Below are positions 39,954 to 43,561 of a DNA stretch of 50,802 nt, in pieces. The notes beneath the pieces are model-generated. The model was not told the origin of the DNA, made no database searches, and was given only the letters and a program-made list of their open reading frames with translations. The position numbers and the translations under genes are program-made. Position 1 is the first letter of the stretch. Each line of letters opens with the position of its first letter. The stretch is from Acidobacteriota bacterium (GTDB lineage Bacteria > Acidobacteriota > Vicinamibacteria > Vicinamibacterales > 2-12-FULL-66-21), in the NCBI GenBank assembly GCA_046726015.1, contig JBKOZS010000143.1, forward strand, positions 1 through 50,802, written 5' to 3'.

Positions 39954-40649
39954 ATGCCGGCACGCAGATCCGCAACGGCCGCGCCCGTCACGCTCGTGAT
40001 GCGGCGGCTTGCCCGGGCGATTGACGGCCTCGACGAGCCCGCCGTCGAGAAGATTGCCAGGGACCAGCAGGAAGATCCGTTTCAAGTCCTCATCGCGACG
40101 ATGCTGTCGGCGCAGACGAGGGATGCGGTTACGCATGCGGCGTCGACGCGGCTGTTTCGCGTTGCGCGAACGCCGCGGTCGATGGCGAAGCTTGACGTGT
40201 CGCGGATCGAGGAGCTGATCTACCCGGTCAGCTTCTATCGCCACAAGGCGGTGCACGTCAAACAGACATGCGAGCAGATCGTGAGCCGCTTCGGCGGGCG
40301 AGTGCCGTCCACGATGGACGACCTGTTGACGCTGCCGGGGGTCGGCCGCAAGACTGCAAACCTGGTCCTGATCCTTGCGCACAGCAGCGAGGACAACATC
40401 TGCGTCGACACGCACGTGCACCGGATTGCGAACCGCCTCGGGTGGGTGCACACGCGTACGCCCGAAGAGACCGAGCACGCGCTCTATAAGGCGACCCGGC
40501 GTCGCTGGTGGCCGATCATCAACCTGTATCTCGTGACGTGGGGACAGAACGTGTGCCGGCCTGTTTATCCGCTGTGCCCGCAGTGCGTGCTGGCGGATGT
40601 GTGTCCGAAAATAGGTGTGACCAAGATAGGCAAGTTGGTGAAAGCATAA
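39954..40649 (+). CDS. nth: Endonuclease III (HhH-GPD, 4Fe-4S)
   Basis: Motifs LSAQTRD, LPGVGRKTAN, VDTHVHRI and CRPVYPLCPQCVLADVC. Confidence 0.93.
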   Translation: MPARRSATAAPVTLVMRRLARAIDGLDEPAVEKIARDQQEDPFQVLIATMLSAQTRDAVTHAASTRLFRVARTPRSMAKLDVSRIEELIYPVSFYRHKAVHVKQTCEQIVSRFGGRVPSTMDDLLTLPGVGRKTANLVLILAHSSEDNICVDTHVHRIANRLGWVHTRTPEETEHALYKATRRRWWPIINLYLVTWGQNVCRPVYPLCPQCVLADVCPKIGVTKIGKLVKA

Positions 40650-41338
40650 TGATCACATCCAACGACATGCGTACTTGGTGCTGCGCGTCGGCATTTCTCA
40701 ATGCGCGTGGGGCCCCACCCCCACGCGCTCGCGCTCGCCGGCGGCGCTTCGCGCCGCTTCACTCCGTCGCCTCGCGCGGGCCGCAGGCGCTTCTCATGCT
40801 GGGGTTCACATTGATTGTCACCCTGCCTTGGCCGGGATCGGCTCAAGACAAATCCCCTGGCGCAGGGCCAATCGTGGTCCTCGAAACAGCGAAGGGCACG
40901 ATCGAGTTCGAGACGTATCCCGAAGAAGCGCCGAAGACCGTGGCGCACATCCTGGAGCTCGTCAAGCGAGGCTTCTATAACGGGCTGCGGTTTCACCGCG
41001 CCGAACCGAACTTCCTGGTCCAGGTCGGCGATCCGCTGTCGCGTGACATGAGCCGCGAGGCGGCGTGGGGCCGCGGCGGCTCGGGGAAACCGATTGGCGT
41101 TTCAGAAGTGACGAAGAAACGCCGGCACCTGGTCGGCGCCGTTTCCATGGCGTATTCAGGCAGCCGGCGCACGGAGGCGGACAGCCAGTTCTTCATCACC
41201 CGCCGGCCGGCACCGGAGCTCGACGGCAAATACACGGTGTTCGGGCGCGTGCTGAAAGGACAGGAGGTTGTCGCGAAGATCCAAAGAGGCGACGTTCTTA
41301 GACGAGCGTATCTGAAGGACGAGGCGGCAAAATCCTGA
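40649..41338 (+). CDS. Secreted cyclophilin-type peptidyl-prolyl isomerase; signal peptide interrupted by an in-frame palindromic element
   Basis: Motifs APKTV, GFYNGLRFHR, VQVGDP, VSMA, SQFFI and LDGKYTVFGRV. The start is uncertain (40649, 40667 or 40796). Confidence 0.88.
   Translation: MITSNDMRTWCCASAFLNARGAPPPRARARRRRFAPLHSVASRGPQALLMLGFTLIVTLPWPGSAQDKSPGAGPIVVLETAKGTIEFETYPEEAPKTVAHILELVKRGFYNGLRFHRAEPNFLVQVGDPLSRDMSREAAWGRGGSGKPIGVSEVTKKRRHLVGAVSMAYSGSRRTEADSQFFITRRPAPELDGKYTVFGRVLKGQEVVAKIQRGDVLRRAYLKDEAAKS
40687..40791. mobile_element. 105-nt palindromic MITE/RPE-like element inserted in frame
   Basis: Its ends match the 23137-23352 element in reverse orientation. Its length equals 35 codons. 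Hairpins GCGCGTGGGGCCCCACCCCCACGCGC and GCGGCGCTTCGCGCCGC. Confidence 0.75.
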
Positions 41339-42245
41339 CGAGGCCCTTCAAGTCCGGATAGCGCTCGACGAATTCCTCAGGGTACTCGCCGTCGAGCGGC
41401 TGTCCGAGCTTGTGCTTGATCGTGGCGGCATTGGCGACGGACTTCGCTGAAAAATGATTGTTCGTGTAGAGGTAGGCCTTCTTCACCTCGCGTGACGCCG
41501 CGTCCGCAGCCTCGACGATCGGCTCCAGTTCGTCCGCCGTGTAGAGATAGTTGTAGCGATCCTCCGACTTCTCATGGCGCCACCACTGCCCGGCGTTCCG
41601 GCCGTGCAGCCGCATGTAATAAAACGTCCGCACGTTGGGGAGCAGTGTCTGCCTGATCGAGACGCGGAACTTCGGCTCGTCGATTTGGACGAGCGCCGCG
41701 CCGAACTCGCCAAGCACCGACAGCGTGCCCGCGGGATCGTCGCTGAAGCTCCGGTGCCGCAGTTCCACAGCCAGCTGGTAGTCCTTGAACGCCGTCAGCA
41801 GCCATTCCAGATAAGCGCGGTTGTTCCCTTCGTTCTTGAAGCTCGCGGGAAATTGCGCGAGGAGCGCGCCAAGCTTGCCCGCTTCCGCGAGCGGGTCGAT
41901 CGCACGGCGGAATTCGTCGATGTCCCGGTCGCCGAGTGACAGCGCATCAGCGCCGGCCGCCTTCGCGAACATCTCCGGATGCGTGAACTTCTGATACAGC
42001 TTCAGTGAGAATTCGAAATTCGCCGGTGTGCGTTCGGCCCAACCCTTTGTGGCCGCTGGTTTCGGGACGCCGTAGAAGCTCGAGTTGATTTCAACGGTAT
42101 CGAAGTGCTCGGCGTAGAACGCGAGCTCGTCGAAGGCGCCCTTCTTCTTTTTGGACGCGCCGGCACGAACCGGATAGAAAATGCCGTTCCAGGTCCCTCG
42201 ACCCGACGGGTAGTTCCAGCCGGAAGTGCCGACCCTCACACTCAT
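41298..42245 (-). CDS. DUF72-family protein
   Basis: MSVRVGTSGWNY, FDTVEINSSFY, LAQFPASF, AVELRH, YMRLHGRN, RYNYLY and YTNNH. Start placed at ATG 42245. Confidence 0.9.
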   Translation of the reverse strand: MSVRVGTSGWNYPSGRGTWNGIFYPVRAGASKKKKGAFDELAFYAEHFDTVEINSSFYGVPKPAATKGWAERTPANFEFSLKLYQKFTHPEMFAKAAGADALSLGDRDIDEFRRAIDPLAEAGKLGALLAQFPASFKNEGNNRAYLEWLLTAFKDYQLAVELRHRSFSDDPAGTLSVLGEFGAALVQIDEPKFRVSIRQTLLPNVRTFYYMRLHGRNAGQWWRHEKSEDRYNYLYTADELEPIVEAADAASREVKKAYLYTNNHFSAKSVANAATIKHKLGQPLDGEYPEEFVERYPDLKGLVRILPPRPSDTLV

Positions 42246-42269
42246 TTGAGCTTTCCGTATTCGTGCTTG

Positions 42270-42341
42270 TCGAAGCCGAACGTGACCTTTGATCCGCGGA
42301 CCAGGATCGGCCGCTTGATCAGGTTTGGATTCTCCATCATC
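42270..42341. repeat. 72-bp direct repeat, copy A (orphan 3' end of the arsC-like gene)
   Basis: Matches 42461-42532 with 2 mismatches. On the minus strand 42340-42242 reads MMENPNLIKRPILVRGSKVTFGFDKHEYGKLK*. Confidence 0.95.
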
Positions 42342-42344
42342 TTT

Positions 42345-42444
42345 TGCCGGGGGGCTTCGCCCCGCCGGACCCCCCTGCACGCTCGCTCGCGGGGCCCCCG
42401 TGCCCCGCGCCGCTCGCGTGGCTCGCTCGCTATCGCTTGCTCGC
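42345..42444. mobile_element. GC-rich multi-hairpin repeat element between the two 72-bp copies
   Basis: GGGGGCTTCGCCCCGCCGGACCCCC, GCGGGGCCCCCGTGCCCCGC and a GCTCGCTCGC-rich tail. Only one copy is in the window, so mobility is inferred. Confidence 0.5.
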
Positions 42445-42768
42445 AATGTAGGCGTCGCGATCGAACCCGAACGTGACCTTCGATCCGCGGACCAGGATCG
42501 GCCGCTTGATCAGGTTTGGATTCTCCATCATCAGATCGATGGCTTCCTTCTTTGATTTCGGCAGCGGACGCTCCTTGAACACCGGACTGCGCGTACTTAC
42601 GAAGTCGAGGAAACGGTCGGCGTCGATGTGTTTTTCGAGAAACGCCCGGTCGGGAGGTGTCTTGTTGATGTCGATCTGTTCCACGTCGATCTTGTGCTCG
42701 TCCAGGAAACTCCTGGCGTTCTTGCAGGTCGTTCAGGTCGGCTTCGAGTAGAAGGTCGGCTTCGCCAT
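42430..42768 (-). CDS. ArsC/Spx/MgsR-family thioredoxin-fold protein, probable selenoprotein (UxxC)
   Basis: ATG at 42768 reads MAKPTFYSKPT-TGA-TTCKNARSFLDEHKIDVEQIDINKTPP...MMENPNLIKRPIL. The TGA (42735-42733) occupies the first Cys of CxxC. Confidence 0.85.
42461..42532. repeat. 72-bp direct repeat, copy B (within the arsC-like gene)
   Basis: Matches 42270-42341 at an offset of 191 nt. Confidence 0.95.
42702..42716 (-). promoter_or_regulatory. Putative bacterial SECIS hairpin
   Basis: CCAGGA-GTT-TCCTGG starts 16 nt after the UGA. Its apical loop begins with GU, 22 nt after the UGA. Confidence 0.6.
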
Positions 42769-42783
42769 TTTCGCATTCTAATG

Positions 42784-42881
42784 GACCTCGGACCTTCCGC
42801 CTTCGCCGCGAAGCGGGGTTCCAGCTTTGCGCTTCGCGCTCCGGTGGACAAGACGGCGGACAGGCGGACCTCGGACCTCGG
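42784..42881. repeat. GACCTCG heptamers flanking TCCGCCTTCGC/GGACAAG REP-like repeats in the arsC-queE spacer
   Basis: gacctcggacct tccgccttcgc ... tccagctttgcgcttcgcgctccggtggacaag ... gacctcggacctcgg. Confidence 0.6.
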
Positions 42882-42919
42882 CGCTCGCGCATCGCGTAAA
42901 ATAGCTGATTGGGACTCTG

Positions 42920-43561
42920 GTGCTGACCGTCAACGAGATCTTCCATTCGATCCAGGGGGAGTCGACCCACGCCGGGCGGCCGTGTGTGTTCGTACGCCTC
43001 ACCGCGTGCGATCTGCGCTGCTCGTGGTGCGATACGCCCTATGCCTTCTATGAGGGCCGGAAGATGGCCGTTGACGAGGTCGTCGCGAAAGTGCGCGATT
43101 ACGGCTGTGACGTGGTCGAGATCACCGGCGGCGAACCGCTGCTCCAGAAGGACGTGTATCCCTTGATGGAGCGCCTTCTCTCGGAAGGCCATACGGTTCT
43201 GCTCGAGACCGGCGGGCACATCAGCGTCGAACAGGTGCCGCAGGGTGTGTTCCGCGTCATTGACGTGAAGTGCCCGGGCAGCGGCGAAGCCCGCAAGATG
43301 CACTGGCCGAACCTCGATCACCTGCGCGCCACCGACGAAGTGAAGTTCGTGATCAAGGATCGCGAGGACTACGAGTTCGCAAAGCGCGTGGTCGACGAGC
43401 GTCAGCTGGTTGGCCGGTGCGCTGCCGTGCTTTTCTCACCCGTTCACGGCGTGCTGGACCCGAAGCAGCTCGCCGAGTGGATCCTCGCCGACAGGCTGCC
43501 CGTTCGGCTGCAGCTGCAGGCTCACAAGTACATCTGGGATCCGCAAACGCGCGGCGTTTAG
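42920..43561 (+). CDS. queE: 7-carboxy-7-deazaguanine synthase (radical SAM)
   Basis: Motifs [18 protein letters not shown] (CX3CX2C), TGGEPLLQ and QLQAHKYIW. Confidence 0.93.

Follow-up and report, generated by a model that had tools for sequence, protein, structure and literature searches.

We analysed a window of 50,802 nt (positions 1 to 50,802 of contig JBKOZS010000143.1, forward strand, assembly GCA_046726015.1, from a Vicinamibacterales member of the Acidobacteriota), whose minus strand carries a candidate gene for a selenocysteine (Sec)-containing protein of the ArsC/Spx family. The gene is crossed by a single in-frame TGA, followed by a hairpin of the kind that directs Sec insertion in bacteria and, farther on, by a repeat-rich region and a DUF72 gene. 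All coordinates refer to this window. The genome to which the window belongs (G000) is a fragmented metagenome assembly of 6.04 Mb in 341 contigs, and is 87.9% complete. The features of the locus are collected in Table 1.

The reading frame and its features

A plain listing of open reading frames (ORFs) gave just one ORF at this site, of 84 residues (42430..42684, minus strand), starting from an internal GTG at 42684. The same frame was found to be open upstream of this GTG as far as an ATG at 42768-42766, and the only in-frame stop between this ATG and the terminal TAG was the TGA at 42735-42733. With the TGA translated as Sec, the product has 112 residues, begins with MAKPTFYSKPT-U-TTCKNARSFL and contains NLIKRPIL farther on, and its motif is U12-T-T-C15, which is of the UxxC type. 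The protein scored 54.1 bits with the Pfam model ArsC PF03960 (cut-off 24) and 81.7 bits with the NCBIfam model TIGR01617 (arsC_related, Spx/MgsR family; cut-off 75.05). When it was aligned to Spx, the U-x-x-C fell on C10-x-x-C13 of Spx, and the S-T-R-S stretch that includes Spx Arg60 was kept.

The first-pass annotation, made from the letters of the window, had described an 84-residue fragment within a frame that extends to the ATG through one TGA, had placed this TGA at the first Cys of the CxxC motif of the family, and had held that the rest of the gene was intact and that ordinary annotation would truncate it. We recovered both the fragment and the longer frame on the minus strand. The TGA aligned with Cys10 of Spx and was matched by Cys in homologues, the frame ran through NLIKRPIL to the TAG, and the ORF listing gave the truncated product alone.

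Table 1. Features at the candidate selenoprotein locus, in coordinates of the 50,802-nt window.
Feature	Position	Strand	Details and basis
ArsC/Spx-family selenoprotein, predicted coding sequence	42430..42768	minus	ATG at 42768, Sec-TGA at codon 12, TAG at 42432-42430; translated with TGA = U
Putative Sec codon UGA, residue 12, first position of U-x-x-C	42733..42735	minus	conservation; aligned to Spx Cys10
Cys15 codon TGC, probable resolving partner in U-x-x-C	42724..42726	minus	invariant alignment column; aligned to Spx Cys13
Putative Sec insertion sequence (SECIS) hairpin CCAGGA-GUU-UCCUGG, 6-bp stem	42702..42716	minus	arms CCAGGA 42716-42711 and TCCTGG 42707-42702, loop GTT 42710-42708; pairing conservation, covariation, codon choice
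-10-like box TAGAAT, 6 nt before the ATG	42775..42780	minus	conservation; no Shine-Dalgarno motif between box and ATG
G+C-rich repeat element between the gene and its duplicated fragment	42341..42429	minus	7-11 genomic copies of its core motifs
Duplicated 3' fragment of the selenoprotein gene, 32-codon ORF	42242..42340	minus	83% identical to residues 78-107
DUF72 (PF01904) gene, conserved operon partner	41298..42245	minus	Pfam 190.7 bits; downstream of the selenoprotein gene

Conservation of the TGA codon and the hairpin

The protein was searched, with stops read through, against 61 genomes drawn from its genus, family and order, among them the genome that holds the window. Fifty of the 61 genomes gave a match, and in 47 of these 50 the match was full-length with exactly one internal TGA. 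These one-TGA orthologues were 57-90% identical to the window protein. The remaining three matching genomes held a copy with no stop (G023), a frame-shifted copy (G057) and a distant Cys paralogue (G041). The TGA stood at the same codon in 46 extracted sequences, and the 47th (G048) was not placed by the motif search. A second, independent route made use of named contigs, whose record titles identified them as Vicinamibacterales or Acidobacteriota metagenome-assembled genomes, and it yielded 59 loci, 57 with TGA and two with TGC. A total of 106 loci were examined and reduced to 93 distinct loci by the removal of duplicates; 91 of them carried TGA and two carried TGC at codon 12. Over the 11 codons preceding the TGA, third positions varied and the amino acids were kept. 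The frame is thus translated on either side of the TGA. In G057 the orthologue (L069, G057:C3:985903-986824) was split over two frames, and the first piece contained two TGA codons; this is a frameshift or an assembly error, and perhaps a decaying copy.

The search was also carried to a sample of 151 genomes of the phylum with a match threshold of E ≤ 1e-15. There were 16 matches, nine with one TGA (down to 37% identity) and seven with none. For seven of the nine (six from outside the order and G188 from the same order), the TGA was confirmed to open the xxC motif. Nearly all of the 120 top-ranking proteins in a large protein database were full-length, at 108-116 residues, and Cys occupied the Sec position in all 12 of the full-length database proteins inspected (70-85% identical where identity was listed). 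The Cys-only character of these database homologues is to be expected, as only the Cys forms can be predicted whole by gene callers.

We then considered the hairpin downstream of the TGA. Its stem begins 16 nt downstream of the TGA and its loop 22 nt downstream, and the folding energy of the 18-nt hairpin was -8.6 kcal/mol. According to the available sections of a 2026 review (PMC13188914), a bacterial SECIS element has a loop of 3-9 nt, a stem of 4-16 bp, a G in the first two loop positions, a distance of 16-37 nt from UGA to loop and an energy ≤ -7.5 kcal/mol, and the values at this locus (GUU loop, 6 bp, 22 nt and -8.6 kcal/mol) lie within all of these ranges. Over 45 distinct Sec-form sequences, 96.3% of the cells in the six stem pairs were standard pairs, compared with 24-64% in slid controls in which the partner was moved by 1-3 columns. 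The fifth pair (27-33) was A-U in 30 sequences, G-C in 13 and G-U in two, and was compensatory; in one further locus (L124) the sixth pair was changed to G-C. The choice of codons provided evidence independent of the pairing statistics. All 89 of 89 Sec forms had AGA or AGG as the Arg codon of the 5' arm, and 76 had AGT as the codon after it, with a genome-wide usage in G000 of 7.0% of Arg codons for AGA and AGG together and 5.2% of Ser codons for AGT. Both Cys (TGC) forms had other codons at the stem site, and there the stem cannot form.

The first-pass annotation had called this hairpin at bacterial SECIS distance, and had proposed alternation of TGA with Cys codons alongside a conserved hairpin as a check on the Sec assignment. 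The hairpin lies where it was called; the Sec forms keep it paired and covarying and neither of the Cys forms has it, and the alternation was seen among the distinct loci as well as in the inspected database proteins.

Some of the Sec forms from the phylum were more distant (37-51% identical; among them L136 and L140, from G140 and G073, of other orders). They had the same position of the UGA in the motif and, at the corresponding site, unrelated stem sequences, and two of the more distant Sec forms had a GGUC apical loop, which we take to be like the SECIS loop of E. coli fdhF.

Selenocysteine machinery and the reading of UGA

A tRNA-Sec with the anticodon TCA was found in G000 at C283:5720-5813 (Rfam RF01852, 59.6 bits, cut-off 47), and ARAGORN called it SeC(tca). 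The selA gene lies on C90 (542.6 bits, cut-off 267.9) and selD on C258 (358.9 bits, cut-off 125). The selD gene (G000:C258:8697-9626; L016 1483-2433), which runs off the end of its contig, also carries an in-frame TGA, at the position of the active site, and so encodes a selenoprotein in its turn. The first-pass annotation had proposed that selA, selB, selD and tRNA-Sec be sought in the genome, and all of them except selB were found in this 87.9%-complete assembly. In the relatives, selB was above cut-off in 12 of the 12 genomes searched, including all four of the same genus. A strong second match to the SelB model (144-182 bits), presumably EF-Tu, was present in nine of these 12 relatives, and none was present in G000. 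Genomes of the same genus that are 91% and 99% complete measure 7.2-7.4 Mb, against 6.0 Mb for G000, and a sizeable part of the G000 genome is probably unassembled. We attributed the selB gap to this incompleteness.

If decoding follows the standard pathway of bacteria, codon 12, a UGA, would be read by Sec-tRNA(Sec), which SelA and the Sec-containing SelD would make and which SelB would deliver after docking on the CCAGGA-GUU-UCCUGG hairpin. The mRNA would start at or beside the ATG and would probably continue into the DUF72 gene.

Several observations weigh against a functional Sec gene at this locus. In G000, selB was found neither by TIGR00475, nor by the SelB-wing model PF09107, nor by tblastn with SelB of the same genus; the searches matched only TypA, IF2, LepA and EF-G loci, and selB was not beside selA. 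A consensus promoter scan of 42150-42950 gave no sigma-70-type pair of -35 and -10 elements. The folding energy of the 71-nt region was unexceptional (z = -0.70), with 53 of 200 shuffles folding at least as well, and the commonest variant of the bare 15-nt stem-loop reached only -4.9 kcal/mol. Only one pair is clearly compensatory and the sequences are kin, so that the number of shuffles reaching 96.3% pairing (0 of 500) overstates the significance of the result. The function, moreover, can be inferred from family and fold only. On account of the z value, folding energy was rejected as evidence on its own, and the significance of the hairpin comes from the comparison with relatives and not from its energy.

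The first alternative is that the UGA is read through by means other than Sec insertion, such as near-cognate insertion of Trp or Cys or a general reassignment of the codon, which the Sec pathway of G000, incomplete without selB, might invite. Of 1531 long ORFs in G000, however, 838 end in TGA, which makes it the commonest stop of the genome, and a general reassignment is thereby excluded. Moreover, tRNA-Sec, selA and a Sec-containing selD are present, selB occurs in every relative searched, Cys is the only alternative residue at the site, and conservation of the SECIS-type hairpin is confined to the TGA forms. Read-through of this kind is thus very improbable.

That selB was not found in this assembly, together with the internal GTG start, could also be taken to mean that the UGA is a real stop, in which case the locus would yield an 11-residue peptide and/or an 84-residue protein from GTG 42684 that has no redox motif. 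The region from the ATG to the GTG is however conserved at the protein level with synonymous variation, and it holds the invariant T-T-C15 and the start of the first helix. The internal GTG encodes a Val, which relatives do not keep as a start codon, and the Cys forms are full-length. We regard a real stop as exceedingly improbable.

The 84-residue ORF call, the fragmentation of the assembly into 341 contigs, the rearrangement of the 3' end of the gene by repeat insertion and the frame-shifted copy of G057 might suggest that the TGA arose by nonsense mutation or by an error of sequencing or assembly, or that the gene is a pseudogene. This is hardly credible, since independent assemblies have the same TGA in 91 of 93 distinct loci, peptide conservation extends to either side of it, and one public contig (X1, record 5) covers the Sec codon unchanged, though this contig may stem from the source sample. 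The first-pass annotation had held that such an error would be implied by a genome without Sec machinery whose close homologues all had TGC or TGT; machinery was found, and nearly all of the orthologous loci have TGA. Together, the sequence evidence indicated with high confidence that the locus is a genuine Sec-encoding gene for an ArsC/Spx-family selenoprotein of the thioredoxin fold, with Sec at the position of the first active-site Cys.

Fold, gene neighbourhood and relation to known proteins

An AlphaFold model made with 40 sequences had a mean predicted local distance difference test score (pLDDT) of 89.6 and placed residue 12 directly before a helix (residues 13-24). The CxxC of thioredoxin-fold proteins usually sits just before such a helix. 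The best PDB matches were Spx (3l78, 1z3e and others), YffB 1rw1 and E. coli ArsC 1i9d. The best structural match was YffB 1rw1 (PA3664; TMq 0.81, root-mean-square deviation 2.6 Å, 30% identity), the TMq of E. coli ArsC 1i9d was 0.75, and the sequence match to Spx 3l78 had E = 3.2e-13. Judged by sequence and model, the most likely redox chemistry of the protein is a cycle of selenol/thiol and selenenyl-sulfide states, and it would act as a small oxidoreductase or a redox sensor.

Two more specific functions were weighed against this one. The protein could be an Spx-like transcription regulator and no enzyme, binding the alpha subunit's C-terminal domain (alpha-CTD) in RNA polymerase and sensing oxidation through its U-x-x-C. 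Spx is among the best matches in both sequence and fold, the 'Spx/MgsR family' model TIGR01617 was above its cut-off, and the motif position and the Arg60 stretch agree with those of Spx. The Spx-specific NCBIfam models, however, were far below their cut-offs (NF002459, 49 against 123 bits; NF009885, 34.8 against 152; NF009210, about 30 against 159), and the best structural match, YffB, is not a regulator. Furthermore, Arg52 of the protein aligned to Gly52 of Spx 3l78, a placement that adjoins a two-residue gap and is therefore moderately certain. In the available text of PMC2801614, Gly52 of Spx is required for alpha-CTD binding, in which a G52R mutant is defective, and it is among Gram-positive bacteria that the characterised Spx proteins are said to be conserved. 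Overall, we consider an Spx-like regulator rather unlikely.

A glutaredoxin-coupled arsenate reductase, that is, ArsC proper, is improbable. It would agree with the Pfam family ArsC, with the fold match to the E. coli enzyme and with the label 'arsenate reductase' that database neighbours often bear. The model for arsenate reductase (glutaredoxin), TIGR00014, nevertheless gave only 41.9 bits against a cut-off of 106.05. The ArsC selenoprotein of TIGR00014 is listed with UxxS and not UxxC in the available sections of PMC13188914, and no ars genes were noted among the immediate neighbours, which are DUF72, QueE, QueC and cyclophilin.

In 30 of 30 loci the next gene downstream on this strand was DUF72, and in most relatives its start is overlapped or directly adjoined by the stop of the selenoprotein gene. 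Upstream, in divergent orientation, 25 of the 30 had a radical-SAM gene of the QueE type and, after it, queC. Neither DUF72 nor QueE turned up within 2 kb of the gene at nine loci from more distant members of the phylum. The DUF72 proteins are TIM barrels, and computation has assigned to a Thermotoga member the predicted role of a DNA-repair enzyme like endonuclease IV, as given in the available text of PMC3828134 and PMC4939058. The selenoprotein and DUF72 might form an order-wide leaderless two-gene module in which the Sec-Cys centre reduces, activates or redox-gates the DUF72 enzyme, an idea that we put forward as doubtful. If it is true, the module would be the first functional handle on DUF72 and would supply a substrate for an ArsC/Spx-type selenoprotein; we infer that the conserved DUF72 partner is the best lead to that substrate. 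On the plus strand, an ORF for a cyclophilin-type peptidyl-prolyl isomerase (40508-41338; PF00160, 136 bits) converges on DUF72, and their 3' ends overlap at 41298-41338. As listed, this ORF has a long N-terminal extension that is probably spurious.

The -10-like box that the first-pass annotation had pointed out before the ATG was present at 42780-42775 and was supported by conservation as a probable promoter element, though with no -35 match. At least 66 of the 91 loci with an assigned start had TAnnnT 5-9 nt before it, and only eight had a Shine-Dalgarno-like motif. Because a TAnnnT lies so close to the start and a Shine-Dalgarno motif is lacking, the mRNA is probably leaderless, and the sequences suggest leaderless mRNA in most of the family. 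A Shine-Dalgarno-like motif replaced the -10 box in L038, L053, L061-L064 and L111, several of them from other families of the order. With such a motif in a minority of orthologues, the leaderless arrangement seems to be lineage-specific.

The 3' end of the gene has been altered in the window. A 72-nt direct repeat (42270-42341 and 42461-42532) is 97% identical between its copies, which are spaced 191 nt apart. The duplicate has retained the ancestral tail and still overlaps the start of DUF72 by ATGA, and the full gene has a new C-terminal tail; the tail of the duplicate resembles the gene ends of relatives without the insertion. Loci L023 and L030 have a related insertion at the same site and no duplication. 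The duplication (42242-42532) may reflect a genuine rearrangement, or two strain variants may have been joined into a chimera during assembly. On both sides of the gene (42341-42429 and 42783-42890) lie dispersed short repeats that look like repetitive extragenic palindromic (REP)-type intergenic elements. The 12-mer GGTCCGAGGTCC has 102 copies in the genome, often in tandem, and two of them are just upstream of the gene.

In public sequence data, the best run held 0.41 of the sampled words. Four runs gave short contigs, mostly from relatives or from the dispersed repeat, and no public contig in these four runs spans the stretch or bridges the 191-nt duplication. Many samples contributed short contigs that cover the G+C-rich element heavily. 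Positions 42701-42768 are covered by one contig of a metatranscriptome library; this does not show transcription.

The consequences of these findings are mainly for annotation. TIGR01617, the model that the protein passed, does not describe selenoproteins, and NF041106, which does so for the ArsC family, misses the gene. Given the truncation and this gap in the models, the same mis-call is likely in roughly ninety genomes of Vicinamibacterales and other Acidobacteriota, and a dedicated family model would fix it. The gene is conserved throughout an order of uncultured soil Acidobacteria. An abundant, mostly uncultured soil lineage is thus seen to keep the selenocysteine trait, and its Sec and Cys forms, the former with and the latter without the SECIS element, make a clean set of natural pairs; it also offers an ArsC/Spx-type redox protein linked to DUF72. 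General knowledge of selenoproteins is unchanged; what is added is an annotation correction and the DUF72 lead, which will be no surprise to specialists.

Selenoproteins of this general kind have been listed before. In the portions of the sources available, 'ArsC-like' selenoproteins were reported from Deltaproteobacteria in a 2006 survey (PMC1794560), UxxC selenoproteins of the ArsC/Spx kind were listed from ocean metagenomes in 2008 (PMC2398784), and reviews of 2022 and 2026 list both an 'arsenate reductase, UxxS' and an 'arsenate reductase-like protein, UxxC' (PMC9312934, PMC13188914), which the later review assigns to TIGR00014 and NF041106, respectively. An ArsC/Spx-type UxxC selenoprotein is, given these earlier UxxC listings, an already known kind. 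The 2026 review (PMC13188914) makes no mention of Spx, TIGR01617, PF03960, MgsR or Vicinamibacter, and its supplements may list the family; the BSepDB paper makes no mention of Spx, TIGR01617 or PF03960, and the BSepDB entries and supplements may likewise list it. No related literature was found that joins Vicinamibacter with a selenoprotein.

Among the listed families, the closest in description is 'Arsenate reductase 2' of the Global Ocean Sampling (GOS) selenoproteome (cd03032, UxxC, 42 sequences; available text of PMC2398784). Both it and the present protein have the ArsC-superfamily thioredoxin fold, Sec as the first residue of UxxC and Cys homologues, a likeness of motif and description that does not tell the same family from a sister family. 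The GOS sequences came from marine metagenome reads, whereas the present gene occurs in Vicinamibacterales of soil and rhizosphere. We take cd03032 to be the Spx-type subgroup of ArsC, which would fit TIGR01617 as the best NCBIfam match. With the 'arsenate reductase-like protein, UxxC' of NF041106 the protein shares the ArsC family, the UxxC and a length of about 107 residues (available sections of PMC13188914); the model 'ArsC family (seleno)protein' gave it 30.1 bits against a cut-off of 85, and it is therefore not a member of that model. The TIGR00014 selenoprotein (the Sargasso Sea/GOS 'ArsC 1'), as far as its available descriptions go, belongs to the same superfamily with Sec at the nucleophilic position, but its motif is UxxS and that of the present protein is UxxC. 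YffB (1rw1) has C-D-T-M where the present protein has U-T-T-C, and is without the second cysteine; with NF008107 ('ArsC family reductase') the present protein scored 41.2 bits against a cut-off of 121. Spx of Bacillus and Streptococcus (1z3e, 3l78) shares with it the fold, the length, the position of the motif (10-13 against 12-15) and the Arg60 region at about 26-32% identity, and the present protein differs from Spx in having Sec in place of Cys and Arg at the Gly52 position.

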